A DNA stretch of 60,000 nucleotides. Origin: Laetmonice hystrix. Lineage: Eukaryota. Location: positions 9,178,001-9,238,000 of the forward strand of contig OZ249436.1 in assembly GCA_965235115.1 (NCBI GenBank), in the 5' to 3' direction. The notes beneath the pieces were generated by a model. The model had not been told where the DNA came from. It did no database searches and was given only the letters and a program-made list of their open reading frames with translations. Within the stretch, counting starts at the first letter, position 1. The number at the start of each line of letters is the position of its first letter. The translations under genes were made by a program, and so were the position numbers. Shown one piece after another: positions 11,362 through 41,500 of this stretch.

Positions 11362-11455
11362 GACGTCCTTCTAGACTCACGACGTACTATCGTACGTAGA
11401 GTCTACACGAAAACGATACGACTCGACACACCAAACGGTGGCAGCTAATGGCACA

Positions 11456-14943: not shown

Positions 14944-15447
14944 GAGCCCCTGGTCGTGACACTCACACAAACACACAAACATCATGTTGTCGGAGGCGGT
15001 CTGTTTTCGTCACAATAACTGCGCCGCGAGCCCCTGGTCGTGACACTCACACAAACACACAAACATCATGTTGTCGGAGGCGGTCTGTTTTCGTCACAAT
15101 AACTGCGCCGCGAGCCCCTGGTCGTGACACTCACACAAACACACAAACATCGTGTTGTCGGAGGCGGTCTGTTTTCGTCACAATAACTGCGCCGCGAGCC
15201 CCTGGTCGTGACACTCACACAAACACACAAACATCGTGTTGTCGGAGGCGGTCTGTTTTCGTCACAATAACTGCGCCGCGAGCCCCTGGTCGTGACACTC
15301 ACACAAACACACAAACATCATGTTGTCGGAGGCGGTCTGTTTTCGTCACAATAACTGCGCCGTGAGCCCCTAGTCGTGGCACTCACACAAACACACAAAC
15401 ATCATGTTGTCGGAGGCGGTCTGTTTTCGTCACAATAACTGCGCCGC
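14944..15447. repeat. 84-bp tandem repeat x6 spanning the Gv stop codon and proximal 3' UTR
   Basis: Unit starts at 14944, 15028, 15112, 15196, 15280, 15364; on the minus strand each unit carries (G/A)CGGCGCAGTTATTGTGA (AAQLL* in most copies). Confidence 0.95.
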
Positions 15448-15620
15448 CTCGAGATTTTCTTTGATGATGGTGTGCATAACGACCTGGAAGACAACCTGGA
15501 TGTTGGACGTGTCAGTGGCCGTCGTGAAGTGAGGGTAAACCACTTTACCAACGTTATTCACCTGTCTCAGGAACAACATCTGGATAAAGATGGCGGCTGA
15601 GTCGACGTCATAGTCAGCAC
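15430..15620 (-). CDS. gnav: Gv alpha exon 9 ([10 protein letters not shown]...HFTTATD...ENLEAAQLL*)
   Basis: GGCAG acceptor at 15621, G5 motif TTAT, TGA at 15430-15432; 191 nt. Confidence 0.95.
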
Positions 15621-18600
15621 CTGCCAAATATTGAGGGGGATTATTTAAGTTTATCAAGGAGCCAGGATCTAACATAGTCAGCACCTGCCAAATATTGAGG
15701 GGGATTAATTTAATTTATTAAGGAGTCAGGATCTAACATAGTCAGCACCTGCCAAATATTGAGGGGGGATTATTCAAGTTTATCAAGGAGCCAGGATCTA
15801 ACATAGTCAGCACCTGCCAAATATTGAGGGGTGGGAGGGGGATTATTTAAGTTTATCAAGGAGCCAGGATCTAACGTGATAAGACCTGGTTGAAACAGAC
15901 AGTGAGGAACATGCAATGTTTGATAACCTCATGCAGGACACTGGGACACGGAGTCAGAAAGTGAAGTCTGTGGGGTCAGCTCCTTCTCCCCGTCATGAAT
16001 AAGAATGGATGGTAAGGACCTTATTTACCCTACGGGATACTGGGGACCTGTCCCTTCACGGGCCCCATCTGGAGCGTGGTGGGGGAAGGGGCAAAGGTTA
16101 GCAATATGACCAGCAAGGTCAGTAAGACACGGTTAAAGTAGGACCTTGCGGGTAAAGTTGTGACGCCGCACGGGTGGGCATGATTGGCTAATCAATATTG
16201 ATCACCAATCGATTCAATATTAACCAGGGACCTGGCACCTTCGTGGGTGTTCAACGACCTACTTCTAATAACTACCCCACCTTACCTTTGGTAACGAAAA
16301 AATTAAACCACATATATCTTATTACTAGAGCTTTGATACAAAAATACACTCAAAAGTATCATATTATTCTCTTACAGCCTTACAACACTTGACTTCGGCA
16401 TGGAAATTCATAGAACCAATAGATAGAATAGGGAGCCTACAGTCCCCCACCCCCTTGAGAACTAATATAGGCGGCAATTAACTTCTACGCCTCCAATATT
16501 TAGAAAGACGTACCTGTGAAATGTGAGAAGTAATAGCGGAGATGACGGCCTGAGGTTAATATCTTCTCCCGGAACAAGTCCAGCTTGTTCAGAAACAGAA
16601 TCTGAAATACAAAAGGTTCAGGTTGTTATCAGGATCCTATTTCCACTTTCATTTATATAGCACTCCACCATCGCAGTAATCACCTCACGGAAATTTGATA
16701 TTGACCGTAAATTAACATAATTGTATACATAAATATATAATATACGTCGCTTAGGAATATGGAAACAAAAACAGTAAGATAGAAACAACGGTGACATATA
16801 GCAGTCAAATCAAAACACTGCACAGTCTGGTAATACAAGTACGAGAGCTTTGGCACCAGTCTGATTTAACTACACAGTTCCTTGAGATACAAGTACGAGA
16901 GCTTCATCACCAGTCTGATTTAGCTACACAGTTCCTTGAGATACAAGTACGAGAGCTTCATCACCAGTCTGATTTAGCTACATGTGTACAGTTCCTTGAG
17001 ATACAAGTACGAGAGCTTCATCACCAGTCTGATTTAGCTACACAGTTCCTTGAGATACAAGTACGAGAGCTTCATCACCAGTCTGATTTAACTACACAGT
17101 TCCTTGAGATACAAGTACGAGAGCTTCATCACCAGTCTGATTGAGCTACACAGTTCCTTGAGATACAAGTACGAGAGCTTCATCACCAGTCTGATTTAGC
17201 TACATGTGTACAGTTCCTTGAGATACAAGTACGAGAGCTTTGGCACCAGTCTGATTTAGCTACACAGTTCCTTGAGATACAAGTACGAGAGCTTCATCAC
17301 CAGTCTGATTTAGCTACACAGTTCCTTGAGATACAAGTACGAGAGCTTCATCACCAGTCTGATTTAGCTACATGTGTACAGTTCCTTGAGATACAAGCAC
17401 GAGAGCTTCATCACCAGTCTGATTGAGCTACATGTGTACAGTTCCTTGAGATACAAGCACGAGAGCTTCATCACCAGTCTGATTTAGCTACACAGTTCTT
17501 TGAGATACAAGTACGAGAGCTTCATCACCAGTCTGATTTAGCTACACAGTTCCTTGAGATACAAGCACGAGAGCTTCATCACCAGTCTGATTTAGCTACA
17601 TAGTTCCTTGAGATACAAGTACGAGAGCTTCATCACCAGTCTGATTTAGCTACATGTGTACAGTTCCTTGAGATACAAGTACGAGAGCTTCATCACCAGT
17701 CTGATTTAGCTACACAGTTCCTTGAGATACAAGTACGAGAGCTTCGTCACCAACTGATTTAGCTACATAGTTCCTTGAGATACAAGTACGAGAGCTTCAT
17801 CACCAGTCTGATTTAGCTACACAGTTCCTTGAGATACAAGTACGAGAGCTTCATCACCAGTCTGATTTAGCTACACAGTTCCTTGAGATACAAGTACGAG
17901 AGCTTCATCACCAGTCTGATTTAGCTACACAGTTCCTTGAGATACAAGTACGAGAGCTTCATCACCAGTCTGATTTAGCTACACAGTTCCTTGAAATCAC
18001 ATTAGTGCGCTAATCAAAAAGGGACATGAACGCTAGAAACAGGTAACTAACGTTCTTGTGTGTGACGGATATACTTGTGTATACCGTCACAGTATATCGG
18101 TCACACACACAACAGGTAACTAACGTTCTTGTGTGTGACGGATATACTTGTGTATACCGTCACAGTATATCGGTCACACACACAACAGGTAACTAACGTT
18201 CTTGTGTGTGGCGGATATACTTGTGTATACCGTCACAGTATATCGGTCACACACAACAGGTAACTAACGTTCTTGTGTGTGACGGATATATACGCAAGTA
18301 ATTTGAAACTTCTCTCGCCAACTGCCAGACAATATCGGTAATATACGGTAGGCTCGGGGTATTGCTTCTCACCCATACCGCAGGGAAATACTATAGTATT
18401 GCTGTCCGTATGCCATACAGTGTGTGCCACATCTACTTTCACATCACTGACCTGCCAATGCTATCTTACACAGAGAATCCAGCTCACCAACCTTGGGCAC
18501 TGCCACAGTCAAACCTATAGAGTGGTCTACTCATTTTTCTTTCTTTTTTAGTTCTGATTTCATCAACATTCCAAGGGCACGGGACAGACGTTACCATGGC

Positions 18601-21600
18601 AACAGAACGAAACAGTCAAAGGCTGGCGTCCGAAGTCACCTGGAAGGACTGGCGGCCTGTGGTGGGCCTGGTGGTGCACATCACTGATCTGAGAGCATCT
18701 GGCCTCCGTAATTACTGTCAGTGACTGGGTCCTGTGAAGTTACCCGCTCAATGGTGAAGGACACATGATAGTGGAAGCGAGGGAAATGAAAACTAGACCG
18801 TGGCAGCATGTTCGTTAATATGTTCGTTATACTTACTATAGAGGTATCATTGAAGAACTTGGTGTTAACAATTTGCTGGAATAGCTTTAGACTCTCCTCC
18901 AAGCGGTTCTGAAAGAAAATGATGGATTATGATTAAAATATTCATCTCTTAGACGCAAAAAGGAAAGTAAACGAATACTTATTCATCAAATTGTCTATGC
19001 CATCTAAAATCGGTACAGCGTAAATTATCTCGTTATTTTCAATCAGTGCTCCCTATATAGGCCTATTTATGTGAGTGAGAGACAATGCAATACCAAATGG
19101 CGTTCTTTTCATTGTTAGAAGAAATTTTATCCACAAGTCATATTAAAATTTTTCATACTTCAAATCCAATTAACAAGATAACCAACCGTTGCATCCAATT
19201 TTAGGCTTCATCCGATTTCAATAATTCACTAAAAATCCCCGATAGGTTACACCCGCTTAACACTGAACTGCCTTGCAATCTTTAAATTTTGAAATGTTTT
19301 TTTAACGTGGCGGGGAAGCCCTGCACTGTGGCCTGAGTGTGTGTGGGCGTGACTACCCCCCCCCCCCCCCCCCCCGATGATTTGGGAGGAGTTCGTACCA
19401 CTGACGGGTCCTCAAACAGCGTCATGTCGTATCCACTGAGTGCCGTCACAAACAATAGCGCTCGCACGTCATCAAAACATTGGATCCACTTCCGACGCTC
19501 TGAGCGCTGGCCTCCCACGTCAAACATTCTGTTAACATATCAAACCTCAAACTTGACTACAATAGGGTTAGGGTCAATGGTCACACTTACAACACTTACT
19601 GGCCTCCCACGTCAAACATTCTGTTAACATATCAAAACCTCAAACTTGACTACAATAGGGTTAGGGTCAATGGTCACACTTACAACACTTACTGGTCTCC
19701 CACGTCAAACATTCTGTTAACATATCAAAACCTCAAACTTGACTACAATAGGGTTAGGGTCAATGGTCACACTTACAACACTTACTGGCCTCCCACGTCA
19801 AACATTCTGTTAACATATCAAACTCGACTACAATAGGTGGGCAATGGTCACACTTACAACACATACTGGTCTCCCACGTCAAACATTCTGTTAACATATC
19901 AGACCTCAAACCTGACTACCATATAGGGTTAGGGTCAGTGGTCACACTAATTACATCACTTACATCTGGGCACAGATCAAATATGGCTTAGACTTCAGTA
20001 TTACCAATCTTCTATAGCAGTTAATGCACTGCTTGAAAGGATTTTCAGTTGTCTCGAAGGGCTAAGGTACGTTACCTGAATATGATGAAGGGCTAAGGTA
20101 CATTACCTGAATATGATGAAGGGCTAAGGTACATTACCTGAATATGATGAAGGGCTAAGGTACATTACCTGAATATGATGAAGGGCTAAGGTACATTACC
20201 TGAATATGATGCCATTTATTTTGAAGCACGTTTCAATGATGCTTGTCGTCCGAATTCGAGCCCTCAGCACATCTGCTTGAGTAGGTCTGAACTTTTCCGA
20301 GCATATCCGGTCCATATGGTTGAAATAACTACAACAGCAAATGGTACAACGCATGAAGCTCAACGACACATGATTTCAGAGAAAAACACTTGAATAACTA
20401 CAACAGGAAATGGTACAACGCATGAAGCTCAAAGACACATGATTTCAGACAAAAACACTTGAATAACTACAACAGGAAATGGTACAACGCATGAAGCTCA
20501 AAGACACATGATTTCAGACAAAAACACTTGAATAACTACAACAGGAAATGGTACAACGCATGAAGCTCAAAGACACATGATTTCAGACAAAAACACTTGA
20601 ATAACTACAACAGGAAATGGTACAACGCATGAAGCTCAAAGACACATGATTTCAGACAAAAACACTTGAATAACTACAACAGGAAATGGTACAACGCATG
20701 AAGCTCAAAGACACATGATTTCAGACAAAAACACTTGAATAACTACAACATCAAATGGTACTACGCATGAAGCTCAAGGACACATGATTTCATACAAAAA
20801 CACTTGAACTGAAGGGCTTCTTTATTGGGAAATACCAACTTTTTTTTAAATAGCTCAAATGTTAAAAACGATTCTTTTTATTGTAAAAAATGCAAGTAAC
20901 AATAGCTACATTGGTCCTTGCCCACACTCCAGAGGGGGAAATATTCTGGCTAAATTAGATGATAAAATAAGATGGAGATAATGAATGTATTTCCTGAATG
21001 ATCAGTCAGAATCATAATTCAGTCCGGCTATATAGATAGAGGCAGCTAGACAATACATTATGTCCATTAATGATCATTAGCGGCACAGTTGTAATCCATA
21101 CAACTCCCACCAGACCATTAATACGGCACTGTCAGCTAGTAATTCCTTCCCGATAAACCTCATCAATCCTGATAGTTTAAATGGCTTAAAACTTGTTTTA
21201 TCCATGTTGCTTTACAGATGAAGCCCTCCCTCTTTACTTGTCTTAATAATTCATCATTTCCCAAAAAGATTTGTTTCAAATGGCCTGACAAATTGTGACT
21301 TGTGTATAACTTATACAAGGAAACCCCATTATGCAATGACAATTAAATGTATCTTCAGACTACACGGGATACGCCACCGTGTTCTACAGACATAATACAA
21401 CAGTCATCAGCGTGAAGCGCCAGACGTGCATGATAACACCCAGAATCAACGCTCGTCTGAGGTCTGATTAAAATGCTATAGCCCACGTCCATACGGTCTA
21501 TTGCACGTATACGGCTGGCCTCCGTTCACCAACACCTCATCGTCCCAGGCCATGGCCTCATCACTTCTACTTATCACCGGCTCTGGCACTCAAAATATCC

Positions 21601-23424
21601 CATGCATTTCAGCATGGAAATGTCAGAAGTTTTATTCCTCCCGTTCAGCCACCATTGACAGTATTGTGCAGCAAGTGGTTTCTTTGAATTGACTGGTTTC
21701 CCGATGCTGCACAGCCAGCAGCACCAGGAGCGGCGCGCTATCTATCAATCGCAGTGTAGAGTCGGCCTGGCGCAGTGGGGACCGAGCAACTATCGTTGTA
21801 TGCACAGTGGACGGCCGCCAGAAAGCCTGTGCTGGGATGACCAGATTACCGTGATGGGACCTAGGTTACAAACCGAGTCATGATAACACTGAACATAAAT
21901 GGCTATACTCATGTGGTCACACGTAAGTCTCCCAAGGCTTGAAGGCCGACAGTTTCATCGGCTTATTCATACCAACATTTCCATGGCAATCCCCATTGGC
22001 CTTTTCTTCTCAATCAATTCTAAATGCACATAGAAATTCCCTTCTATTTAATCTTATAATGGATGATATCCATTTTTAATCAACTTTTTTCAACAACATA
22101 AGGTGCATACGGCAGAGTGACTAATTAACTACCATATTTCAGATGTATTTAAATGAAACCTAAAAATGCCACTGCAATATTCCAACGTTTGAGATTAGAA
22201 TCCGCCACTGAAAGCGAAATATTTTATTATTTGCGTTTTATCTAATAACCTCCATTCCTTTATAAAGTTATGAGGGTTATTTTATAACCATTATCATTTA
22301 TACATGGTATCGTTATATCAGTTGGTTCCACTTGTCTTTTTCTGACATAGTAACACCAGAATACTGGTTTAAACAACCAGTGTGTTTTCATTTTTAAATA
22401 CCGGTAAAATATATAGTTTATAGTTAGCTTCGCTCTGACTTTTCCTGATAATATTGTAATACGTAATCTAATCGGACGTCAGTCGTAGAAACGGTACTGA
22501 TGGCTTGTGATAATTTTTCAGCTTGCAATATTAAAGGTCAACGTGTGCATCGAATTATGGAGAGAAAAGCTGGTGAGAAACTGTAGCAATGGAGTGTCCA
22601 TTAGTGTGAGCGTCCGTGAGACTACACTTGTCACCCCCACATTGAGCCATATGGATGGCAATACAATACACGACCAGTTGTGTGTCCATCTCCTGATTGT
22701 AGTGGGGACCCCGACTCCCTCTCCCTGCTGCCACCTTATAACTTCTCCATGCAATCTCTGGACCATGTGACAACTCGCAACCAGCCCAGTCACTACCAGA
22801 ACCGACATGCAAATCTTTTGCCACGCGTCAACATGAAAACATGATCACACACGAATGAATAATTGATTAACACAGCATGCTACGAAAAATCACTCCGAGG
22901 CAAAACCAAAATATAACGGCTATGTAGACCTAATTTCTAGGTTTGACTTCACTCATCAGAATACCTCTTATAATATATTGATTGTGATGGTAGAGGGCGA
23001 TTGTTTGAATCGTTTTTCGAGTATCCACAGATCTGGTATGATGGAAGAGCCTCTACAGTGGTAGTTCCAGTGGTAGCTCCCCACAGACAAGACGGGAGAG
23101 GTGACTGACTGGTAGGTACAGAGCTCTGCTCAAACCTGCCACAGTCTTCCGATCTGAGGCCGATCCACCACCACCACCACTATCACTGCAATTACCACCA
23201 CCGCCACCACCAAACACACAACCAATTAGGGGACATTTTAATACATCTCAACGATATATTTAAGGGGGCGTAATTAGAGCAAAAGTGTACAAAATAATAT
23301 TATCCTTATCGGATAGAAGGGTGCAAGATGGATTAGGTCAGAGGCCTCCGTCGATATGTGATTCGCCTGGCAACTGAGCTGTGGGAAGACGTGTATGTGT
23401 GTGTGTGCTGCATGGAGCAGCCAG

Positions 23425-23505
<81 letters not shown>

Positions 23506-26500
23506 CCCTGCCACATCGCTTGCCAGAATGAGAATGGCCGGCGTTCATTATTATTATGCATAACACCCCGCGATCAATACCTGGCTCGACGGTGCTGACG
23601 CCTGGTGCCACGCAACACAACTACACTGATTAAACAGTATTGATCTTTCGAGCCCAATTCGAGAACCACTCGACGTTTGTTAAAGCATTATTGCCTTTAC
23701 GTGGCACGTATCCAGACTATGAGTTTGAAATACATTACGGTTAATCCTTGTACTGACCATAAGGCAGCCATGATTCTACGCTCATTACCATGAGGTGGGG
23801 GTGGGGGTGGGGTCCTGAACCAAAACCCACACGCTCGGGAAAACCTAATGAATGGAGCCGTACCCTGTAACTAAGAACCCCTTGGTGTATGAAGGCAATG
23901 TTAGTGGTCGTAACGGGGGAACAGAAATCGCTGAATCGGCAAGATTTATTTGCTCACATTCAGCCAATGCAAATCTTTGTGGATTTAAATTCATTGAATT
24001 TTGCTGTTTGTGACATCAGGTTTTTATACCATTGATTTACTCTACATCCCCTGTAACATAAGAAAATTAAAGAAAAACTTACTACACAGCCGAGTCATTG
24101 AGTTCATACTCGTATCCTCTGTCGACAGCCAGTCGTATGCCCTGATCGTTCCACAAACACTTGAGGGCGTTAAAGATGAACGGCAGCATGATCTGTTCTT
24201 CGTCATAACATCGCTGGCAGGCCAACACCGTCTGAGCATGGAGCTGAAGTCCAAAAAATACACCATGGAAACGTTAATACACATGTATATGCCAACACCG
24301 TCTGAGCATGGAGCTGAAGTCCACAAAATACACCATGGAAACGTTAATATACCAACACCGTCTGAGCATGGAGCTGAAGTCCACAAAATACACCATGGAA
24401 ACGTTAATACACATGTATATACCAACACCGTCTGAGCATGGAGCTGAAGTCCACAAAATACACCATGGAAACGTTAATACACATGTATATGCCAACACCG
24501 TCTGAGCATGGAGCTGAAGTCCACAAAATACACCATGGAAACGTTAATACACATGTATATGCCAACACCGTCTGAGCCTGGAGCTGAAGTCCACAAAATA
24601 CACCATGGAAACGTTAATACACATGTATATGCCAACACCGTCTGAGCATGGAGCTGAAGTCCACAAAATACACCATGGAAACGTTAATATATGCCAACAC
24701 CGTCTGAGCATGGAGCTGAAGTCCACAAAATACACCATGGAAACGTTAATATATGCCAACACCGTCTGAGCATGGAGCTGAAGTCCACAAAATACACCAT
24801 GGAAACGTTAATACACATGTATATGCCAACACCGTCTGAGCATGGAGCTGAAGTCCACAAAATACACCATGGAAACGTTAATATATGCCGACACCGGCTG
24901 AGCATGGCGCTGAAGTCCACAAAATACACCATGGAAACGTTAATATATACCGAGGTATATACGAAACACTGAAATGTCACGTTGAAATTAAAGATATCCA
25001 TCAATTACATACATCTAGTTTGGATTCACTAGCTGTGTCTCGTGTCCGAGAGAGGGCAATAGGCCTAGTGAACCTGGCGGAAAGTTAAACAAATCTGCCC
25101 CTCCTCCGGTTTAATCAACATACTTCAAGGTTTCAAGGTAACTTCAGTTGTATTCATGTTTAAATTAAAGAACTGTGGCGTATCTGATCCTTTAAGTGTA
25201 AATCCTATAATCATTTAATGGTGATTGTGTTGTGGTCTGGAATCACGAGGGACACTTTCCACCAACTCGCTGCGCGCCATCTATATCAGGTAGTTAGTTG
25301 TTCAGCTAGCCGCCAGATGGCAGCGCTCCAACCTGTATGTCCACTTTCATGTAGGCCTGAAAGATATGGCCACTGGCCAGACTCAGAGCGATCTAAGAGC
25401 GAGTCGGTAACACCGGCTGACATCAAAGAAATGATAATGAATGTTACGGATGCTGTAAAGGCACCCCCCCTACTATCCCCAGGAGAAACAACTCCATATT
25501 TCCCCGACCACTCCGGGTTATTCCCCCATGGTAACTTTCAGACAAAATTTTGGGTATAGGTTCGGGTTAAGGTCAGGGATAGGGATAGGATATAGGCGGG
25601 GTATGCTTTTGGGTGGGACTGGGATTAGGGGTTAGGGATAAGGTCGGGGCTATGGATCTTTACTTTCGGCGACCAAATTTCGTGGGGTCTAAGTTACCAC
25701 GGGGGATGTACCCGACGCCGGTCCTGTCTCATGCACCGACTGACCTTGTTCTTTGGGTTGTCGAGGTTGATACGGAGGAGCCCCATACCATTCAGTACGT
25801 ACTTCATGGACGACAACAGGTTCTCGATCACCGTTGTCTGAAAATATATCATTTATCACGGTTATAATACAAGGTACGAAATACAGTCAATTGTGTCATA
25901 GCTTCATCAAAACAAACCTGAAACAACCGCGGATCCAGCACTGCATGAAAGGGGGGCGCTCTTTTAGGGCTCAAGGCGAAAGTGCGCGGGGGGGGGGGGC
26001 TCCCTCCAGTGTTTTTTTTTTTAATTTAGAAGGCAAAAAAAGGAAAAACACGCTGTTTCCCGGCAGCTGGAGGTAGAAATTGTGACAGAAATGAAAATGT
26101 TCGCCTACAAATTATATTTTTCACTTCTTCAAAATAAAGAGGGGGGGGGGGGGGGGCTGCGCGCCTCCCCCTTTATTCGAGCCTGTGAAAATGGTCATTC
26201 ATTTATTTCTTTCACTGTCGCATGTAGTATCTGTAACATGTGTAGACAAAAATAAGAACACGCAGCAGCATTTACATGTTACTACTGTCATTGCTCCATT
26301 TCATTTCAGCTGCATGGACACTCTCCAAGTTCTATTCCATAACACATCATTCTCCATTTCATTTCAGCTGGATACTCTCCAAGTTCTATTCCATAACACA
26401 TCATTCTCTATTTCATTTCAGCTGGAAACTCTCCAAGTTCTATACCATAACACATCATTCTCTATTTCATTTCAGCTGGGCACTCTCCAAGTTCTATTCC

Positions 26501-29500
26501 ATGACACATCATTCTCCATTTCATTTCAGCTGGATACTGTCCAAGTTCTATTCCATGACACATCATTCTCCATTTCATTTCAGCTGGATACTGTCCAAGT
26601 TCTATTCCATAACACATCATTCTCCATTTCATTTCAGCTGGACACTCCCCAAGTTCTATACCATAACACATCATTCTCCATTTCACTAAAGCTGGATACT
26701 GTCCAAGTTCTATGCCATAACACATCATTATACCTAATACCATTACCATTGACACAGCTCACTTTAAGGTCAACCGACGACACCCAACCAATTAATTGAC
26801 TGCATGCTTACATGCATGGTTGAACGTTTTACTGGCAAACCATCTTGTTAGCAACATTATGCATGTTCCTGGAAATTACCTAGAAGTGTCAGAAAATCCC
26901 ATGGCGAAAGGTATATTAATATACTACGAAAGGTATACATGTAGTAGTACTACATGGGCAGATCTGTAATGGTTCGTGTATAGCAATTTGCCACCATTAC
27001 GTCAGCGTTAGACCCGCCGGGTAAAGTTCAAACCAGGCACTAAGCTGCTTGATGTATATCATACTACAGACCAGTGTAAATGTTTCCATTGTGTGTGCGG
27101 TAATGTAATACCGCTGAGCTTTGATCAATGGACCTAGTAACGTAAACATTATGGTCTAAACCACACCTTAGTATACTGAACCACCAGGAACCGTCCCCAC
27201 GTCTTCTACAACAATAAAAATACGCATGTATTTCCTATTTACCAACTCCTTTGTTAGATATTGCTACAATGTCAGAATGACTTCAAAGATATATTTTACA
27301 ATTCTAAGGATTACATACATGTAAATGATCTAATACTAACTTTAAAGGCCCTGAATTAATTCACTGACTGTAGGTTCGGTTGTGGGAGGGGGGGGGGGGA
27401 CAAATTACTTGTAAAGTCTTGTATATTATCTCCCCTGTGGCAGCCGGCCCACCCTCGACAAGTTGATATCAGTATACTGTAAAGTACATGTCTAATATAA
27501 GCGACATGACCTCGCCACCACGCACGGAGTTCTGCACGGTGGGATCCTCAAACAGGTGTTCCATTTAATGCTTTGTATACCATGCATAAAGTTATCGTAC
27601 TTTTAGCTGCGTGACATGATTCATGCTGCAATGCATTGGGCACGAGCTGACAATTACGTATAGGTTACGGTCAGTTACTGTTATAAACTGTCAGTTACTG
27701 TTATTTATAAACTGTCAGTTACTGTTATAAACGGTCAGTTACTGTTATAAACGGCCAGTTACTGTTATAAACGGTCAGTTACTGTTATAAACGGTCAGTT
27801 ACTGTTATAAAAGGCCAGTTACTGTTATAAACGGTCAGTTACTGTTATACACGGTCAGTTACTGTTATAAACGGCCAGTTACTGTTATACACGGTCAGTT
27901 ACTGTTATAAACGGACAGTTACTGTTATAAACGGTCAGTTACTGTTATAAACGGTCAGTTACTGTTATACACGGCCAGTTACTGTTATACACGGCCAGTT
28001 ACTGTTATACACGGCCAGTTACTGTTATACACGGTCAGTTACTGTTATACACGGCCAGTTACTGTTATACACGGTCAGTTACTGTTATACACGGCCAGTT
28101 ACTGTTATACACGGCCAGTTACTGTTATAAACGGTCAGTTACTGTTATAAACGGTCAGTTACTGTTATAAACGGTCAGTTACTGTTATAAACGGCCAGTT
28201 ACTGTTATAAACGGTCAGTTACTGTTATAAACATCTACTGTCAGACCGTTCAGAAGTATTCAACTATATTCTACACGAGTACGATGTACCACTAATTGTC
28301 CGATCCATTCGTAAATTACCACGGCTTCATTAATTTAGAACGATTATTATGTTAAAAGATCGGAAACGTTGCCGGTGAGACTCCTTGCGACTGTCTCGTG
28401 AATGCTATCTTAGTACAGCCATGGCAATGTACCACAGGAAACGTTGCCGGTGAGACTCCTTGCGACTCTCTCGTGAATGCTATCCTAGTACAGCCATGGC
28501 AATATACCGTACCACAGGAAACGTTGCCGGTGAGACTCCTTGCGACTCTCTCGTGAATGCTATCCTAGTACAGCCATGGCAATATACCACTAGATCCTGT
28601 TTCCACTTCCTTAATTTATTATTGATCCACTTTTTATATCTTTTTATGGAGAGCACATTCGTGACAGATTCCCTGCCATTCTGTCTATAAAACATCCTGA
28701 ATACGGGCCAGGGTAATTAACCAGGCTGATGGGAACTCAGTGTTTCTTAGAGAAGTCGATATGCAGCCTGAAGTCGCGTTTAACTGTACAATCCCATGTA
28801 GTCGTTTGTAGTCGGTGGTATTTGCCATAGTTGACATACCTAAGATAACCACTCATTAATTGGCAGCGGGCCAGCAGAGCGCGTGTTCAAGTATGCCCCC
28901 CCCCCCCGTTCATTGTTGGATCCAAACTTTCACCTCCGATGTTAACCACGCGAATATATGTCAAGAATATGTGATGCATGTCTGCTTACAATAAGCCGTT
29001 AAGGTAAGTGTATAGGCATGTCTATTAGTAGTTAAATTTGGGACTTATTATAGTCGGACAGAGCAGCCTTTGGACCTTGTAATGCATTCACAAAACCTTT
29101 AGAAGAAAAGAGTCAAATTAACAGTTCAAACCAGTCTTTATTATACTGTCCATTCTTCGTCCTTTAAAAACAACTCTTCCTTGAATATTATAATCTTTAC
29201 GTCTTAGTGCCCCGAACCCTCTTAAAGACCAAACTTAAAAGCTCCTATCTAAGCTAGGATATCAACAATAAACATGGAGAATGTGTGCAGTCTTTCTCCA
29301 TCATTTATCATAACGTGACAAAGACTAATCCTTAGAAAGGCAGGATTCTTCTATCAGCCTTGAAACTAGACTCTCGACTTTAGGACACGCCATAACCACA
29401 TAGCTTAGATTACAAAGTTTGTTATAGTCTTACAGTAATCATAACCAGCCAGTGCATGACGTGTGGTAATTTTAGAGATTACCAAAAGAGATTGGCCTGA

Positions 29501-32500
29501 CATTATGTATAGACGTAGAAATGGTGCAAAAAATGCCTTACGTTTTGCTCCTCGCCCATGCCTGTATACCCTACTATAGAACTGGCAGAGCTGCGGGACC
29601 CTTCTGTATAATCATATCGCAGCCTTTGGGTCGTTATTTGCTTCTCTAAAGGCGGACTCTATGCGATTCTTTGACCGACCGACGCGACGGTGGAGTTGCA
29701 TCGCAATGAGTCGTGTCGCTCTGTCTGAGTCCGCCTTAAGACGAGATATTTGAATTTTAATTTATTCTGTACCTTTGTCTTTCACCCGAGAGGAGCCAAG
29801 TATGCAAACGACTCCAGGTAATAACATATACACAATGAGAACAAGAACACAGACAGAAACACACAAGAGAGAATGTGCGAGTGGTTGACAGAGACAAATG
29901 AACGGGAACAATAAATACTTAGGCCTAGGGAGGGCCTCTCAGTCACCTTTACCCGGAAGAAAGGGTTAAAAGAAAGGATCAAAAGAAAGTACTGCCGCGT
30001 TGTTGCTTTTAAGAAAGTGTACTTGCTCAGTAGATACCGTAAGCCTATTAACTTTTAAACAGCCCCACGGGCTCCGCGGACGGGACTTCGGGGACTTCTC
30101 ATCGTCTCCCACTCATCCCCATTTTACCTGCTCGCTCACAGTCACATTGCATTCGAATCACTGGAGGCCCAACTACCATAAGTATGTACACTGCACAGTG
30201 TTTAGGCCTAACACTCACAGAAATGAGAGAGTGGGACATAATGTGTTGCAAACAAAGTCAAAGCACGGTTATTATATTTTCAAACAAGCGACAAGAGTTT
30301 GTTATTTTAACAACCACATTTAGAAGGTAGAAATCTCTCTTAATGAATTTTTTTGGGAAAACTCCATTTCTACCCTCGTATATATCCTGGTTCATCAGAC
30401 TACAGCTAATTTATGCACCCATTAATACTCCCATTTAATCAACTAATGATAATTCCACATACTGTCGTTACGTACTAGTTACCCATCACCAGTGAACCCT
30501 ACAATCTGTCGAATCATTTGTTGTCCTCAGGGCGGAAGTGTTCACTACGCATCATTATAATACGTTTAGCCTGAGGAAACGATCCATCAACTAATTACCT
30601 GCGTGACACACGGTGGTCTATGTACTCACACGTACTTATAATATACATTGTACCGGGACACCAGTTCATTTGTACCTACATAACAATACAAGGGACCGTC
30701 CTCAAGTCCTGGCTTAAGCTTAATTTCTTCAGAACACAGTTTCATTAATGAAATTCAAATCTGTGTAGGGTACTCCTTTACCAAAATGGAAGGGGAGGGG
30801 GAGGGGGGAGGGAGGGAGGGGGACGGGGGGGGGGCTCCCGTCCAATCTTTGAATCTTCCGGTGCCTATGTCCCTTACCATATATTATTACCGTGCCTTGA
30901 TTGCAATGCATAAGTCTGTTTCCTTTGTGTTAAAGGTTTTAAAAAGCGCTCTAATTGATGTAATAAGACTAACAATGTGGTGTCGTGGTAGTTAATCCCT
31001 CAAGGTGTTCTATAATATATAAAACAAGCTTTACTTACAGCTCCTTACAATCTCCAAATTTTGAGTTTATAAGTAGGCCTGCTTATTGACTACATAGGAC
31101 GGTTGTGGGTAAAGCAAACGTAACAGCCATTTGGTATCTTTACAAACTGTGATTTATACCACACTGACGTCAAGGGTAAAGCTGTTATTCAGGACCACTT
31201 ACAAAATGTTCACCGTCTATTGACGATCAGGTTCATTGTTGATAACGGCACCGCAGTCCTAATATCAATATCATCGCATATCTGCATGATGTCAGGTGCC
31301 TTATGAATATACACTCTGACACCGTTATGATTTAGGCATAAAGCACCAGGCACACTTATTTACGTGCAATATTGATTACTCGTGCATATCGTCAATATAA
31401 ATCTCCCTAATTACACACCATGCATTATACAAAATGTTCTATCAACCTAGCCTCAATCAATGTCCCGTTTACTCTCCGCGAATGTATAATGTTCTCATCA
31501 GCACATTCATAACAGATTGATTTATGGTGGCCTTTAGTTTCATCTACTGGTACTTAAATACACCCGATACCCTACATTTCTTCCAGTTCACGAAAGGCTG
31601 CTAAAATTGAAATTAAGCAATAAAGTTAGTTTTAAATAAGTCAGACCAATTCAATGACAAATATTTGTCGACTCCTTCACCCAGTAATTCTGTATACTGT
31701 ACGTTTCCATGACAGTGTATGACATTATATTGATGTCATGACAACCCAACCAATGTTATGGTAAGTGACATGTCAACAGTCCATTGTATACTGATGTCTG
31801 TAGTCAACGTAACCTGTAATGCTTAGCCCGTCAACATGCCACCTGGAGGATAATGCATCTAGTCTTACAAAGTGATATGTTCAGTCTAGCCTGAAATTAC
31901 TACAACTTCTCACGGCATAAGTTATTCGGTATTGTGTATTGGACCACTGGGCGAAACCAAACATGGGGCAAACTACCTAGTAATAACATTACCCTCCCTC
32001 GAGCTCTGCCTTGTAGCTTTTTATAGCATAATTCATATAGCACTGGCACTTTTTTCGGTACAGACTGCCATAACTTGATTCGACGTATAGGAATGTACGA
32101 CATAATTAAATGAGTGATAGAAAACAGATGATTTCTGTGTAAAATCGAGGTACAATGGACGTTTAGAATAGAGACTGATTATTTTATAGGTGATTGTTGA
32201 GATCCAGAGATATAGCCGATCTTAATTATGACAAACCTTATCAATCGCTATTCGCGACCGTTACCGGTTATGTACAATATTTGAAATAACGTTCACAAGA
32301 TGAGCTAACGTTTGGTAGGTTTGTTTATGTTATGGTGAAAGCCCTTGGATAACGTTCACAAGATGAGCTAACGTTTGGTAGGTTTGTTTATGTTATGGTG
32401 AAAGCCCTTGGATAACGTTCACAAGATGAGCTAACGTTTGGTAGGTTTATTTATGTTATGGTGGAAGCCCTTGAATAACGTTCACAAGATGAGCTAACGT

Positions 32501-35500
32501 TTGGTAGGTTTATTTATGTTATGGTAAAAGCCCTTGAATAACGTTCACAAGATGAGCTAACGTTTGGTAGGTTTGTTTATGTTATGGTGAAAGCCCTTGA
32601 ATAACGTTCACAAGATGAGCTAACGTTTGGTAGGTTTGTTTATGTTATGGTGAAAGCCCTTGAATAACGTTCACAAGATGAGCTAACGTTTGGTAGGTTT
32701 GTTTATGTTATGGTGAAAGCCCTTGAATAACGTTCACAAGATGAGCTAACGTTTGGTAGGTTTGTTTATGTTATGGTGAAAGCCCTTGAATAACGTTCAC
32801 AAGATGAGCTAACGTTTGGTAGGTTTGTTTATGTTATGGTGAAAGCCCTTGAATAACGTTCACAGGATGAGCTAACGTTTGCTAGGTTTATTCATGTTAT
32901 GGTGAAGCCCTTGAATAACGTTCACAAGATGAGCTAACGTTTGCTAGGTTTGTTCATGGTATGGTGAAAGCCCTTGAATAACGTTCACAAGATGAGCTAA
33001 CGTTTGGTAGGTTTGTTTATGTTATGGTGAAAGCCCTTGGATAACGTTCACAAGATGAGCTAACGTTTGCTAGGTTTATTTATGGTGAAAGCCCTTGGAT
33101 AACGTTCACAAGATGAGCTAACGTTTGGTAGGTTTGTTTATGTTATGGTGAAAGCCCTTGGATAACGTTCACAAGATGAGCTAACGTTTGGTAGGTTTGT
33201 TTATGTTATGGTGAAGGCCTTGAATAACGTTCACAAGATGAGCTAACGTTTGCTAGGTTTGTTTATGGTGAAAGCCCTTGGATAACGTTCACAAGATGAG
33301 CTAACGTTTGCTAGGTTTATTTATGGTGAAAGCCCTTGGATAACGTTCACAAGATGAGCTAACGTTTGGTAGGTTTATTTATGGTGAAAGCCCTTGGATA
33401 ACGTTCACAAGATGAGCTAACGTTTGCTAGGTTTATTTATGGTGAAAGCCCTTGGATAACGTTCACAAGATGAGCTAACGTTTGCTAGGTTTATTCATGT
33501 TATGGTGAAGCCCTTGAATAACGTTCACAAGATGAGCTAACGTTTGCTAGGTTTATTCATGTTATGGTGAAGCCCTTGAATAACGTTCACAAGATGAGCT
33601 AACGTTTGCTAGGTTTATTCATGTTATGGTGAAAGCCCTTGAATAACGTTCACAAGATGAGCTAACGTTTGCTAGGTTTATTCATGTTATGGTGAAAGCC
33701 CTTGAATAACGTTCACAAGATGAGCTAACGTTTGCTAGGTTTATTCATGTTATGGTGAAAGCCCTTGAATAACGTTCACAAGATGAGCTAACGTTTGGTA
33801 GGTTTATTCATGGTGAAAGCCCTTGGATAACGTTCACAAGATGAGCTAACGTTTGGTAGGTTTGTTTATGTTATGGTGAAAGCCCTTGAATAACGTTCAC
33901 AAGATGAGCTAACGTTTGCTAGGTTTATTCATGTTATGGTGAAAGCCCTTGGATAACGTTCACAAGATGAGCTAACGTTTGCTAGGTTTGTTTATGTTAT
34001 GGTGAAAGCCCTTGGATAACGTTCACAAGATGCGCTAACGTTTGGTAGGTTTGTTTATGTTATGGTGAAAGCCCTTGGATAACGTTCACAAGATGAGCTA
34101 ACGTTTGCTAGGTTTGTTTATGTTATGGTGAAAGCCCTTGGATAACGTTCACAAGATGAGCTAACGTTTGCTAGGTTTGTTTATGTTATGGTGAAAGCCC
34201 TTGGATAACGTTCACAAGATGCGCTAACGTTTGGTAGGTTTATTTATGGTGAAAGCCCTTGGATAACGTTCACAAGATGAGCTAACGTTTGGTAGGTTTG
34301 TTTATGTTATGGTGAAAGCCCTTGGATAACGTTCACAAGATGAGCTAACGTTTGGTAGGTTTGTTTATGTTATGGTGAAAGCCCTTGAATAACGTTCACA
34401 AGATGAGCTAACGTTTGCTAGGTTTGTTCATGTTATGGTGAAGGCCTTGAATAACGTTCACAAGATGAGCTAACGTTTGCTAGGTTTGTTTATGTTATGG
34501 TGAAAGCCCTTGGATAACGTTCACAAGATGCGCTAACGTTTGGTAGGTTTATTCATGGTATGGTGAAAGCCCTTGAATAACGTTCACAAGATGAGCTAAC
34601 GTTTGGTAGGTTTGTTTATGTTATGGTGAAAGCCCTTGGATAACGTTCACAAGATGAGCTAACGTTTGGTAGGTTTGTTTATGTTATGGTGAAAGCCCTT
34701 GAATAACGTTCACAAGATGAGCTAACGTTTGCTAGGTTTGTTCATGTTATGGTGAAGGCCTTGAATAACGTTCACAAGATGAGCTAACGTTTGGTAGGTT
34801 TATTCATGTTATGGTAAAAGACCTTGAATAACGTTCACAAGATGAGCTAACGTTTGGTAGGTTTATTCATGGTATGGTAAAAGACCTTGAATAACGTTCA
34901 CAAGATGAGCTAACGTTTGGTAGGTTTATTCATGTTATGGTAAAAGACCTTGAATAACGTTCACAAGATGAGCTAACGTTTGCTAGGTTTGTTCATGTTA
35001 TGGTGAAAGCCCTTGAATAACGGTCACAAGATGAGCTAACGTTTGCTAGGTTTATTCATGGTAAGGTGAAAGCCCTTGAATAACGTTCACAAGATGAGCT
35101 AACGTTTGCTAGGTTTGTTCATGTTATGGTAAAAGCCCTTTGATAACGTTTACAAGATGAGCTAACGTTTGGTAGGTTTGTTTATGTTATGGTGAAAGCC
35201 CTTGGATAACGTTCACAAGATGCGCTAACGTTTGGTAGGTTTATTCATGGTATGGTGAAAGGCCTTGAATAACGTTCACAAGATGAGCTAACGTTTGCTA
35301 GGTTTATTCATGGTATGGTGAAAGCCCTTGAATAACGTTCACAAGATGAGCTAACGTTTGCTAGGTTTATTCATGGTATGGTGAAAGGCCTTGAATAACG
35401 TTCACAAGATGAGCTAACGTTTGGTAGGTTTATTCATGTTATGGTGAAAGGCCTTGAATAACGTTCACAAGATGAGCTAACGTTTGGTAGGTTTGTTTAT

Positions 35501-38500
35501 GTTATGGTGAAAGCCCTTGAATAACGTTCACAAGATGAGCTAGCGTTTGCTAGGTTTATTCATGTTATGGTGAAGCCCTTGAACTGATGGAGGAGAGATA
35601 AGTTGTCTACGCTGACCGAGTCAGGATGAATTCGATGATACTGGTTGATTAATCACAACAGGTGGAAGATGACACTGCATTATCTCGAATAACGTTCATG
35701 TTAACACAAAATAGCGACTTCTGGGTCAACACGCACTCCTGCCCAGCCTACATCAGCCAACACACAACCATCAGCTAGCCGCTACAGCAGGGCTCAGGTT
35801 ACTTGGAGATTTGTTACAGCAGGAAAAACAAAAACCATAAGTCACTATTGTTGATCCACAATAAAACTTAAAACACGCGCAGGTATTTGAGACTTCCTTC
35901 AAGAGCAGTTTTTCAATTGACAACATATGAAACAAAGGTTCGCACTGTGGGTAAAGGAATTATTCCGTGTGTAAATCAGCAGAATAAATACTGGACAGAA
36001 ATGTGTATAAAACAACTCTGAGCTGTTTCCGTTTTCAGCAAATTAGCAAATCCGCCATTTTTTCTTATTTGACTTGACGGCAAATACCGTACATGAATGC
36101 ATGCGTAAGGTTGACTTATGGGAAAGCTGAGCTATAACATATATTACAAGAAGGAAGTAATCAGTGTAGCATGTTTCCTCCATCCCTCGCGTGATCTAAT
36201 CAACAAATAACCTCTTTCCGATTTCATCAATAATTCAACTTTTGTTACCCTCAGGCTGACACACAGTTCGTGTTGTAGTAAGCCCACCGATATGTCTGGG
36301 GGTCCTTTTAAATCTTTGCAACTCTCTCAGAGTCTTGAACAGTGCATCAACGGTTGAGATTTATACTTCGTCTTCTTAACGTTGTTTTAAGGTCACAAAG
36401 TTAATCTCATTTAATGCCAAGTTACATCCCATCAGTCTCATATTGTAAACATCTACAATCCTCCTTCATGCATATCCTCTTCACAAGAATTACATCTCAA
36501 TCAAATCGCAAGAAAAACTTGCGGACCTGTCGCCATTTTAAGCTTAAATTAATCGTGCAACTGACAAAAAACTGATTCAAGGTCAAAGGTGTGAAATAAG
36601 TTGACGTATGAAGATCCAGGATACTGTACAGTTCGTTACCTGTTGTTCTTTAACTACATGTATACCCTTGTCTGTGCACCATTAGCCCACTGTTTGTTTA
36701 CATCTAAAGCTTCCCTTTTGAGCCCCTCGCGTTAACACATGAACTGTTCACCTCTGTCAGTGGGTCTGCAGTTCTGAGTGAGAAAACTACACAAAACGAT
36801 GACAATTCTCAATGTCTCTACATTTCGTGCCCCCAATCCTGCTTGTTTAAGTCCCAGTTCTCACTAGAATCAAAAGCAAGTTCGAGGTCATCGCAGCAGT
36901 GTCAATAAAATGAAAAAAAAGAAGAGACGGTGCACAACCAAACAGTGTTGTCACAAACCGCCCGATGCCAGAGCCCTTACTCTGAGGTGTGTAGTTTAAA
37001 TGCTGGTCCTGCGGCCATACACTGGGGGAACCGTCTGTGATTTATATTCGTATTGACCCTTGTGGATCGTGTCAGAGCTGTTTTCATGTTCAACACATGT
37101 ACTTTTTATGCTATTTCCCGTCTCAGTGAAGGCCACTTGTGACGAGGGAAAAAAACACTTAGGTTACACAGAACAGAATGAATATACAAATAAACAACAA
37201 AGAGATTATTCATGTTCACTGAAACATGAGTGCATGCTCTGAAAACTACAGAACCTTCAACTGAATATCTTATCATCGTGTAGAGTATATCCTGCATGGC
37301 TTTGTGAGAGCCATTAGTAAGACACAACTCCCAAACCGTCATTTGGTATATGTATTTATAAACAAGGCTAGCCATGCAGAAGGCTTATCAAACTCCAAGG
37401 GGCTGATCTGACGGGCGTGACCCTTTGCCCCCTTAGCAGACTCACCACCTGACCCCATCTACTGTCAAACAGTTGACATGACTGACAGCAGTGACCTTCG
37501 CTCTGACAAGTCACACCATGACTTTCTCAACGGCTTCCTCCCCGTGAAACTGAAACTGGAGAAACCCGTCCCAATCACTAAACAATCTCAAACATTGCCA
37601 TGATTTAATGTTTTGTGACACCTCACACGGAAAGCGACGCATCCTTATACAATACAAGAAAGAAATTGAGAGAGAGAAGAGATAGAGGATGATGAGAATT
37701 ACTTTGAGTTGCTTTCACTCTCGCTGTGATTCTCAGATGTGTGCTTCTACGAAATCTAAGGAAGTCAAAGCCAAAGGAAAGTTCTACAGCCCACAACTAA
37801 ACTGTGGCCGGTTTCATCAATAGCGATTCCTAGAGAATACTAGACCTTTGTGTTACGTAATTTGTAGTTTCAATTATAAGAATGACCTTTTCCTCATTGT
37901 TACCTTTACCATAATATACCCCATGGAAGGTGTTTGGTGGGGTCGTGAACTCTGACCACTGACCCATGGCCGGTACTATCAGACTGAGGCGAGTCAGAAG
38001 GTCACACGTAGGGACCCCCTCCCGTATGTGTCAAATGAGCACTGATCAAAATTACTCCCAGTACGGTATCCCATTCTCTGGTTGGTGTCAGTATTCTCTG
38101 ACATCACCACTCCCACACTGTCATCCCGCCAAATCACCACAAAACCCAGGACTCAGCTACAGTGGGGGGTAAACTGCCACTGAGCCGCTGAGAACATTCT
38201 CTGGTTGGTGTCAGTATTCTCTGACATCACCACCCCCACACTGTCATCCCACCAAATCACCACAAAACCCAGGACTCAGCTGAAATTCTAATTGTACTCT
38301 CCACTTGACCCCACACAGTCAGATCTGACCCAAAGCCATAAAACTTTCAAGGGCTCACCTCTAGGACACCGTAAGAGGGTACTATGGACTGACTCCCGGT
38401 ACCTGAGCAAATACAATGGCAGGTATTCGGTCTTTGATCAGTGACAAGTGAAGGATGTACGTGGGCTGCCGGCCGGCCAGGGTGGGGGTTGGCATACAGG

Positions 38501-41500
38501 GTGCTGGGAGGTCCCGATGGTGGGTGAGGGAGCCGACCTCTTATCTCATCTGTCACCTTAATGAGGATCCTGCTGTGCTCATCGCTCTCTGTCTACACTT
38601 CACATTGTAACCCACACCAGACCTCACACTGCTAACAAACCTAATGTTTCTCTTTGGTAACTTCACGTAACAAAAACGACAGGATAGTGACCCCCTCGCG
38701 TTTTCCATTTGACTGCGAAGAATTATAAGCAGTTCTGTAGAGGTGTCGCCGGTTTTTTCTTTTATATTCAGGAGTTTTCATACTTGAATGGTTTATTATG
38801 CAATGAAGCGTGAAAACGGCATTAGGTCCTCTCCTGTATGCTTCAGAGTTATCGGCCTTTGCCCTTCCAGACATTAATCTTAAATCAATGAGATGCTATT
38901 ATGCATATTCAGTAGGCAGTCACCGTTTAAAGGTCACACTCGTAGTAGTAACTATTAAAGCGGACAGCTTTATTCCCTGCGGCACTGGGGGAGGTTTATA
39001 GTGAATGGGTCTGGCGTTGACCAGATTGTTCCGGTCAGTGTTGGGGTCACTTTAACCAGAGGGATAGCCCATAAACACTTCGGACATATTTTGGTCATCA
39101 TAAAGGCTACAGGTTGTATGCCGTCGGGCGGCGGTCACGTTAGTAATGACAGAGGGTGAAGGGGTAGGAGAGCTCAACCCTCAACCACCAATGTTGGCTT
39201 TCCAGAGTCCAGATAATGGTCTACCATTGACAACAAGAACACCCAAAGACTTTGCCCTCCAGCTGGCTATATGGTGGCAATAGGATTTTCTCCTTTCGGA
39301 CATAATAAGGGCCTTCTCTTTTGATTGCCTTCAATGCGAAATAAATTCCACACTTTTCGGAGAAATGGCTTTTTATGTCCTTTAACAGGTATCTGATCTT
39401 CTCTGAAAGTAAACACTATGAGCTATATCTTACTTATTTGCGATTTCCCCCTTATCTTATCCAAATGACTGCTTCTGTTTTTATCTGAATAATGACCGGT
39501 ATATTAACTCCTATATCTTCTCGTTGGTTGTTTACCGTACCAGCAGCCAGTCAGGACAGAAAGGATGTTATTCCCTTGTGTAGAAACTCCCAGATTTGAG
39601 ATGACAGTGGGCCGCCTGGCAAGGACAGGTGCTGACGTCAGGTAATACCACCCGTAGACGACCAAATACCTGCTCAGACAGGTCATAATTGGGTCGGTGG
39701 AGCAGAGATTTGGGGCGAGGCACAGACGTCTTGGACGATTACGGGCACACTTATTACTACAGTGACCCCGGACCCAGTCCTACTCACTTTTGAAAGGATG
39801 TCTTGGCTACATAATACTATGTTAGAGGGAAACCTGTAAAATCGACCAGTTTGTATATCTCTGCTCTCTGCTTTCTCTTGATGTACGCGTGTGATGAAAC
39901 AAGCAGAATAGCCCTGGGCCAGAGAGTCCAGTGTTGGCAACTTGGCGGTCGTGGAAGTGGGCGCTATGGTTGAAAGCTCGTGGTGTGGTTCCAAATAAAA
40001 TGTTACTTTTCATAAGAGATCACAGCTCCAAGCATTTCAGGGTTATGTCTAGCCCGATTTGGCCATTCATACCTTTTGAAAATTCCTTGTGATTGCTGAA
40101 AACTTATGCTAACACAATATAAAACCATTCCAATTTAAGTGTTAGATGTTGGTGTATAGTTTGGACATTAAATTTATTTACAAACACTCCTACATAATAT
40201 TGGACCTCGTACTTCTAGAGGTTTACGGTAAAGTCAATATACCGTACACGTCGTTTTCCAGCCAAACCTTTGCCAGTATGACATACCTATGCTCTATCCT
40301 CTCCGGGATTCAACAATAGAAAAAGGTATTCGCCTCGATAATACCACCTCAGCAATGTGAGGTATTTCGAGAGTAGTGTTTTTACGGCTGTAACCTCTAA
40401 CATGGCATGCCATGGCCACTCGAGTCTGGGATAGGTACATGGACAGTCGGGGCCACGTGGGCGGCAGGACAGCTCTACACACATCTCCATTGTATTTTTA
40501 TACTTTTTTTGTACCCGTCATTTTTGTACCACGGATACGGGGTCTGATCTGTAGCGGGGTCTGGTCTGTAGCAGTGGTAGATCCCCCCCCCCCTTTACCT
40601 TTTTTTCTTACAGAGCCTTTTGAATTGACCATTTTGGACCCCTTTTGCCAGATTTTCCCCTTGGATACCCCTCTCTAAAATCCTGGATTCACTCCTGCAT
40701 ACAGGCCTAGATAAAACATAATACAATACTGATCTTCAAAAAGTAAAATCTTCTATGAGGGCATATTGTATATAAATCGTGGAATTTAGTGTAGTTTAAT
40801 TTACACAGTGCATATAAGAAGTTATAACAAATATCACTAAACTGAAAAGCGTAGCGTCAGTTTTCGATGCGTGACATCCTTTGAAGGGAGGAAGAATAAA
40901 ACATGCTACCTGTCTCCTCTTACATGTCACTGGCATGTGTCTGGTGACGGTCCCCTCAATAGGCCGACATCATGGTTGACATGTAGAGTTAGTGCAATTA
41001 CGCTTAGCCAAAAAAAGGAGATAATTTGGGCTGAAGATAGCTTGCACTGGCGGCGGGCGCTTGACATGCGTGTGTGTACCTAGCATGGAATTGTCGCACT
41101 TACGGCGACGACACCAAGAGTTGTGGCGAGTGTCAGGTTTCATGTCGAGCCGGTCACGATACCTCCCTAGATTATCGACCGACGGCAAAACACGCCGGAG
41201 CATTTAATAGATTTTAAAAACCTAGTGTAAGTCACGAGAGTCAACAAAGTATGTATGCAGAAGTTTAGGTGCGGTAGCACGAGTCCATGACAAATTAACA
41301 TGAAATCCCTAAAAAAACATGTCTTTATTGAGGAGGGTGATCAGTCGAATTTCAGTTCTGAATGCAGGGATTAGACCAGAGAAGTAATGGATGTGATTAT
41401 CTGGATCCCTCACACGGTAACACCCCTTTATCTCCGTGGTAGTGTATCAGAAAATGACAATGAGTTATCAGAGGTGGACGACTTGAAAGCATGTATGGGT

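Follow-up and report, generated by a model that had tools for sequence, protein, structure and literature searches.

Tandem-repeat arrays of the mirage class on six coding boundaries of one G-alpha gene in Laetmonice hystrix

A 60-kb window of the Laetmonice hystrix genome (contig OZ249436.1, positions 9178001-9238000; assembly of 627 Mb in 35 contigs) holds an intact G-alpha gene in which six coding boundaries, namely the acceptors of exons 4, 5, 6 and 9, the donor of exon 5 and the stop codon, are each straddled by a tandem-repeat array of its own. The arrays belong to the known class of "mirage" minisatellites, which in this case are exceptionally dense and extend the class to a new group of hosts, the spiralians. 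All six are head-to-tail repeats of minisatellite unit size. In five of the six the unit spans an exon-intron boundary together with its splice dinucleotide, and the host gene is intact, with each authentic boundary continuous with a full exon. Array 1 spans the boundary between the coding sequence (CDS) and the 3′ untranslated region (UTR) and contains no splice site, so it is a mirage by extension only. The six arrays are independent of each other and, in a reading that we hold with moderate confidence, most likely arose without harm as a side effect of a genome prone to repeats.

Six separate arrays in the G-alpha gene

An earlier reading of this DNA, below called the original prediction, had placed six arrays on coding boundaries of a Gv gene. 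All six were recovered by Tandem Repeats Finder (TRF), which reported 45 tandem-repeat rows across the 60 kb, with units for the six of 31-93 bp, 4-11 copies and 89-99% matches, and their anchoring was confirmed by the gene model and by probes (Table 1, in window coordinates). When the 18 boundaries were each searched with probes of ±10 nt, allowing up to two mismatches, five proved to be multi-copy, with 11 copies of the exon 4 acceptor, 5 each of the exon 5 donor and the exon 6 acceptor, 4 of the exon 9 acceptor and 6 of the stop codon. The exon 5 acceptor, which has just 5 nt of exon in its array, gave 7 copies with a shorter motif, and the remaining 12 boundaries were single copy. The exon sequence common to the adjoining copy amounted to 17 (stop codon, including TGA), 12, 22, 12, 5 and 23 nt in arrays 1 to 6, and the splice arrays held 3-10 decoy sites each, which agrees with the predicted 5-23 nt of exon per unit and 3-10 decoys. 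It had further been claimed that the copy continuous with the exon is always the terminal one. This is true, but it is uninformative because geometry forces it in any tandem array that contains an exon edge.

The arrays were also predicted to be unrelated to each other, and local alignment against shuffled sequence and a genome search both agreed. A core motif common to the six arrays was rejected (best local score 17, shuffled maximum 14), as was an origin from a dispersed repeat, no array having a copy elsewhere in the genome. A genome search with positions 14900-25000 gave outside matches to a low-complexity patch at about 23165-23225 (16 of 17 rows) and of exon 6 to a paralogue (1 of 17). 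Since the units are mutually unrelated and absent elsewhere, the arrays represent six separate local duplications. The lengths of the clean arrays are near-integer multiples of the unit (504 = 6 x 84, 156 = 5 x 31 + 1 and 485 = 7 x 69 + 2), and array 3 is flanked by a CCAG microhomology, found in the intron and in the exon; both features fit simple tandem duplication. The 98-99% identity in three arrays points to youth or homogenisation. No orthologous stretch was found among the other genomes scanned.

The arrays, or their copy numbers, are highly improbable as assembly artefacts. The copy numbers rest on the assembly, and the available reads were three DNA runs of a single sample, perhaps the one that was assembled, present as k-mer contigs that confirm the junctions but cannot span the arrays. 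These read-built contigs enter arrays 1, 3 and 6 from unique sequence, exactly where the assembly has them, and break after about 30 nt, as expected at real repeats. Internal and length variants among the units (62/70 and 81/93 bp; 89-99% identity) are typical of real minisatellites, and five similar structures exist at other loci of the genome, spread over five contigs.

Table 1. Positions of the boundary arrays, the G-alpha gene, other arrays of the gene and the mirages in control loci
Feature	Position	Strand	Description
Array 1	14944..15447	-	84 bp x 6.0, 98%; stop codon; unit of last 14 coding nt, TGA and 67 nt of 3′ UTR; 5 extra copies downstream of the real stop
Array 2	15609..15875	-	64 bp x 4.0, 89%; exon 9 acceptor; unit of about 52 nt of intron 8 including AG and first 12 nt of exon 9; 3 decoy acceptors
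Array 3	19507..19948	-	units 81-93 bp, about 4.8-4.9 copies, 91%; exon 6 acceptor; unit of 3′ end of intron 5 and first 22 nt of exon 6; 4 decoy acceptors
Array 4	20056..20211	-	31 bp x 5.0, 99%; exon 5 donor; unit of last 12 nt of exon 5 and 19 nt of intron 5; 4 decoy donors (GTAATG x 3, GTAACG x 1)
Array 5	20324..20808	-	69 bp x 7.0, 98%; exon 5 acceptor; unit of 64 nt of intron 4 including AG and first 5 nt of exon 5; 6 decoy acceptors
Array 6	24221..24948	-	units 62/70 bp, x 10.8, 91%; exon 4 acceptor; unit of 3′ end of intron 3 including AG and first 23 nt of exon 4; 10 decoy acceptors
G-alpha gene	15430..49609	-	tblastn with 12 homologues; splice-site reading; PF00503 on 4 exon open reading frames
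G-alpha exon 1	49609-49486	-	
G-alpha exon 2	41599-41508	-	
G-alpha exon 3	25837-25745	-	
G-alpha exon 4	24243-24083	-	161 nt
G-alpha exon 5	20328-20200	-	129 nt
G-alpha exon 6	19528-19399	-	130 nt
G-alpha exon 7	18908-18837	-	
G-alpha exon 8	16601-16514	-	
G-alpha exon 9	15620-15430	-	191 nt; stop TGA 15432-15430
Small array	41622..41652	-	15 bp x 2.1; ends 23 nt upstream of exon 2 acceptor; abuts, does not straddle
Two ordinary intron 7 arrays	16833..18290	-	54 bp x 21; 73 bp x 3.5
Control mirage	L004:1658-3039		86 bp x 16; acceptor; about 64 nt of exon (unit about three-quarters exon)
Control mirage	L008:5495-6683		70 bp x 17; donor; 36 nt of exon
Control mirage	L012:4930-5622		70 bp x 10; acceptor; 5 nt of exon
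Control mirages	L015:671-1076 and 4755-4953		88 bp x 4.6 across stop codon; 64 bp x 3.1, donor, 34 nt of exon

The host gene lies on the minus strand and is the sole recognisable gene of the window. Its nine exons encode 359 amino acids in an open CDS of 1080 nt, every intron is GT-AG, and the exons make up 3.1% of a span of 34.7 kb. The G1 to G5 boxes are readable in the translation, which begins with MGACLS and contains a TATDT motif; the P-loop, switch and NKxD motifs of the G-alpha domain are complete. A search with one exon open reading frame (ORF) of 43 amino acids retrieved 438 homologues, among them invertebrate proteins of 359 amino acids auto-named "G(o)-like". Per-exon identity by tblastn was 48-89% to the 359-amino-acid invertebrate homologues and 59-87% to Branchiostoma, too low for a lancelet host. 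The Gv label comes from the original prediction and the closest homologues carry the automatic name "G(o)-like"; the gene is here called putatively Gv-like. A Gv class of G-alpha has been described (PMC11087313). When 150 of the 227 ORFs with at least 60 amino acids outside the arrays were compared with Pfam, only the G-alpha exons matched above threshold; nine weak matches fell below it.

Three further features of the gene were noted in passing. Switch I reads RTTSI in exon 5 (20241-20243, minus strand), and all eight of the listed full-length homologues that cover this exon have Gly at the position of the Ser (mostly RTTGI). In Gi/o proteins, a Gly-to-Ser change at this position confers insensitivity to RGS proteins. 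The depth of the k-mer contigs rises from about 50 to 8,000-21,000 at 25236-26000, which indicates a very-high-copy dispersed repeat in intron 3, a short way downstream of exon 3. Intron 2 contains an array of 63 bp x 53 (3.3 kb, 32285-35583) with a GC skew of +0.22-0.25 amid a region of negative skew.

Straddled exon edges in control loci and in the gene

We infer that short tandem duplications are born at a very high rate in this genome and that the arrays go back to six of them, each local and 31-93 bp long, which would have happened to include a coding boundary. Each would then have expanded to 4-11 copies by slippage or unequal exchange. The corresponding null model placed a founding duplication of length L uniformly in the array-collapsed non-coding length G, where it holds a given boundary with a probability of about L/G. 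No second gene that could serve as a control was recognised in the window. Control exons were taken from a non-random choice of three families in the same genome, the CCT chaperonins, G-alpha proteins and kinases. The Cpn60_TCP1 profile gave 55 matches (53 within sampled loci), tblastn with G-alpha proteins gave 25 segments in 7 loci, and the Pkinase profile gave 142 matches. Kinase rows with internal stops, full-length single-ORF domains or near-identical tandem gene copies were dropped, leaving 86 rows, 36 of them within sampled loci. Altogether 67 loci were taken, and the 50 with retained matches provided a control sample of 236,442 bases, 75 arrays and 211 usable exon edges.

Six control arrays overlapped the edge of a match, and five of these were true straddling arrays (Table 1). 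Their hosts are two genes for CCT chaperonins and two for G-alpha proteins, one of the latter Gi-like. The sixth, at locus L016, was rejected as a mirage; it overlaps a tblastn segment by 4 nt, but ends 15 nt short of the real acceptor. In the last 20 control loci, none of 42 edges was straddled. The five arrays compare with an expectation of 3.5 for whole loci or 3.9 for gene bodies (P = 0.28 and 0.35), an observed-to-expected ratio of 1.3-1.4 with a 95% interval of 0.4-3.3. About 2.4% of control exon edges thus carry a mirage, roughly as random duplication predicts. The original prediction had offered a mutational process that targets exon edges as one explanation. The control sample gives no evidence of such targeting in general and makes an enrichment above about threefold unlikely, so the proposal is unsupported as stated; a weaker bias is possible.

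Within the G-alpha gene the picture was different. With 21 arrays of period at least 10, a summed unit length of 1003, 24,450 collapsed non-coding bases and 18 boundaries, 0.74 straddling arrays were expected and 6 were seen, an excess of about 8-fold (Poisson P = 1.2e-4; Monte Carlo P = 6.5e-5). The rough estimate of about one array expected by chance in the original prediction was therefore sound.

This excess and several related observations weigh against a mere by-product. When only the 3′ part of the gene was counted, with its 8 arrays and 14 boundaries, 6 straddling arrays were seen against 1.13 expected (P = 1.1e-3), and of these 8 arrays only the two in intron 7 touch no coding boundary. 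Arrays cover 29% of the gene as against 9% of the 236 kb of control loci, and when the control rate was scaled to the 2.9-fold higher array load of the gene, 1.2 straddling arrays were expected against the 6 found (P = 0.0016). Tolerance alone cannot yield such an excess, since purifying selection only lowers counts below the neutral expectation. In none of the six arrays did the exon share of the unit exceed 0.39 (P = 0.003 if shares were uniform), and the mirage-bearing exons 4, 5, 6 and 9 are the four longest of the nine, the others having 72-124 nt (P = 1/126, post hoc). In an exploratory comparison, 10 control arrays ended 0-40 nt outside an exon edge where about 4 were expected (P about 0.009). 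Finally, the by-product model explains the presence of six arrays in one gene only as chance or as a local cluster.

The force of these points is limited in several ways. The P values for the gene are post hoc, this very pattern having been the reason for flagging the window, and at the upper confidence bound of the control rate 2.8 straddling arrays would be expected against 6, a marginal difference (P = 0.065). The short exon share is selectively explicable, as a unit on the acceptor side must hold a branch point and a pyrimidine tract, which the authentic site would otherwise lose; the units here have 47-70 nt of intron. A further selective reason for a short share is that enhancers able to activate the decoys could lie in longer exonic parts. 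The gene is a genuine outlier, yet within reach of selective reporting.

The abutting control arrays were about 2.5-fold more frequent than under uniform placement. Their gaps to the exon were 3-38 nt, and eight of the ten lay on the acceptor side. They were found at L004, L008, L012, L016, L017, L045, L050 and L060, and the small array before exon 2 in the window is of the same kind. Among the ten, four are very small, duplications of just 12-17 nt located where pyrimidine tracts lie, and in three abutting cases the stretch between array and acceptor resembles a degenerate last copy.

Such observations raise the alternative that tandem duplications arise preferentially at exon edges, over-producing mirages that cluster in some genes. 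Such a preference could come from breaks or stalled replication where nucleosome gives way to linker around exons of nucleosome size, or from damage that accompanies transcription or splicing. This explanation would account for the excess in the gene, for the acceptor-side surplus of abutting arrays, for the length of the mirage-bearing exons (129-191 nt) and for locus L015, whose two arrays both straddle boundaries. It has to be set against the near-random rate of straddling in the control loci, which excludes more than about 3.3-fold enrichment at 95%, against the post hoc nature of the P value for the gene, and against 13 of the gene's 21 arrays lying deep in introns 1 and 2. On balance we consider it unlikely, though worth keeping in view. 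A broader version, in which short duplications in minisatellite-rich marine invertebrate genomes would be biased to exon edges, through exon-nucleosome borders or splicing-coupled damage, and so give rise to gene-wide array clusters, is a speculation that we regard as doubtful. If an exon-edge bias were true, such arrays would regularly give rise to sliding and gain of introns, to microexons and to unproductive splicing. The within-gene clustering and the excess of arrays abutting acceptors, if real, would bear on how local chromatin or splicing shapes structural mutation. A modest exon-edge bias and clustering at the level of the gene may exist.

Other features of the control loci were also noted. 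The loci richest in minisatellites lie near contig ends, namely L004 (contig C1, 0.66 Mb from its end), L008 and L009 (C6, 0.77 Mb from its end) and L012 (C13, 0.17 Mb from its start), which suggests a subtelomeric excess of arrays; the window, 9.2 Mb into a contig of 73.8 Mb, has no such location. Seven intronless PLK4-like kinase ORFs of 540-740 amino acids form two tandem clusters (C1, 21.06-21.07 Mb; C10, 5.67-5.77 Mb; L018-L024). The one that was searched showed 55-57% identity over the kinase domain, with Lingula, Capitella and oysters as the best named hits, in keeping with a spiralian host. At C4:25253376-25298170, nine matches to kinase-domain exons, nearly identical and about 5.55 kb from one to the next, indicate a tandem gene array.

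Decoy splice sites and the fate of the gene

The five splice arrays contain 27 decoy sites, and the splice dinucleotide is kept in all of them (AG in 23 of 23 acceptor decoys, GT in 4 of 4 donor decoys). Translation of the products of decoy use was carried out for 12 of the 23 acceptor decoys, the nearest three of each acceptor array, and for all four donor decoys. Each of these 16 usages ran into a premature stop, so the copies add no coding capacity. In array 3 every decoy acceptor AG is followed by 21 nt and then by GTAAGT (GTATGT in one copy). From their sequence, these units have the potential to form an in-frame microexon of 21 nt that repeats MFDVGGQ, the switch II motif.

Under the by-product model the gene would have survived since the exon-contiguous copy retains the whole exon. 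The acceptor units, each with 47-70 nt of intron, would carry enough sequence for a branch point and a pyrimidine tract before the real AG. The decoys are presumably ignored, with the first donor and the exon-contiguous acceptor winning by exon definition. Should a decoy be used, the resulting transcript would carry a premature stop and should be degraded. The arrays are presumably neutral.

The original prediction had also raised selection for splice-site choice or for tuning by nonsense-mediated decay (NMD), which has found no support. In a fuller form of this idea, the arrays are kept because the decoys damp expression through unproductive splicing and NMD, aid a stepwise, recursive-like splicing, or seed new exons. 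The 27 intact dinucleotides would fit, as would array 3, in which a strong donor recurs 21 nt beyond every decoy acceptor and which could insert MFDVGGQ in frame; a mirage-based model of intron gain has also been proposed (PMC3087553). However, identity reaches 98-99% in the three cleanest arrays, so that youth or homogenisation would leave the decoys intact without selection. A second DVGGQ box would probably be harmful to a G-alpha protein, and mirages occur in unrelated genes at about the chance rate. With a premature stop in every usage translated, we judge selective maintenance to be very unlikely.

Mirages are little known. They provide natural experiments in splice-site choice, in which identical sites compete at a fixed spacing, and a possible route to new introns and exons. 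The control sample provides a first rough mirage rate for one genome, most of which is as random duplication predicts.

Comparison with known mirages and related arrays

The original description of mirages is reportedly that of Canestro et al. 2002, for Adh3. Two amphioxus reports list mirages in Adh3, troponin C, the globins BflGb6 and BflGb9, and PGBD5, with units of 10-160 bp in several copies; the genes stay functional, splicing is said there to be undisturbed, and the origin is called unclear (PMC3087553, PMC3902484). The arrays of the G-alpha gene resemble the amphioxus mirages in that the unit lies across an exon-intron boundary, both 5′ and 3′ boundaries are affected, AG and GT are mostly kept and the gene is intact. 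They differ in their spiralian host, in the number of boundaries affected in one gene (five splice boundaries and a stop codon) and in that splicing was here read from DNA only. In a limited literature search we found no mirage report from a non-cephalochordate invertebrate and nothing relevant on genome-wide repeat enrichment at splice junctions, which does not show that none exists.

Mirages have also been linked to the gain of introns. In the Rogers model, as cited in PMC3087553, an intron is gained by tandem duplication across an AG|GT proto-splice site, and a mirage-based model is proposed in the same source. There, as in the present arrays, duplication yields identical splice signals in pairs that could delimit a new intron or exon, and the units of array 3 (AG, 21 nt, GTAAGT) would have such potential. 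In contrast to the Rogers model, the duplicated segment is an existing boundary and not exon-internal.

The closest human parallels, from a report on variable number tandem repeats (VNTRs), are minisatellites whose first unit lies across a donor, in F7 intron 7 (37 bp), the interferon-inducible gene 6-16, CBS intron 13, LMNB2 and PDGF (PMC1557585). The donor is reiterated there 4-25 times and usually only the most upstream, authentic donor is used; for F7, only the most upstream site is used and normal splicing is undisturbed (PMC1557585). Array 4, with its 31-bp unit repeated five times from the exon 5 donor, shares this architecture. The human VNTRs covered there are single, donor-side arrays, whereas four of the five splice arrays of the G-alpha gene are on the acceptor side and six boundaries are affected in one gene. 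The gene thus brings together five such experiments in splice-site choice, four of them on the acceptor side, where the published human models covered in that source are donor-only, and it places the phenomenon outside the cephalochordates, in a spiralian.

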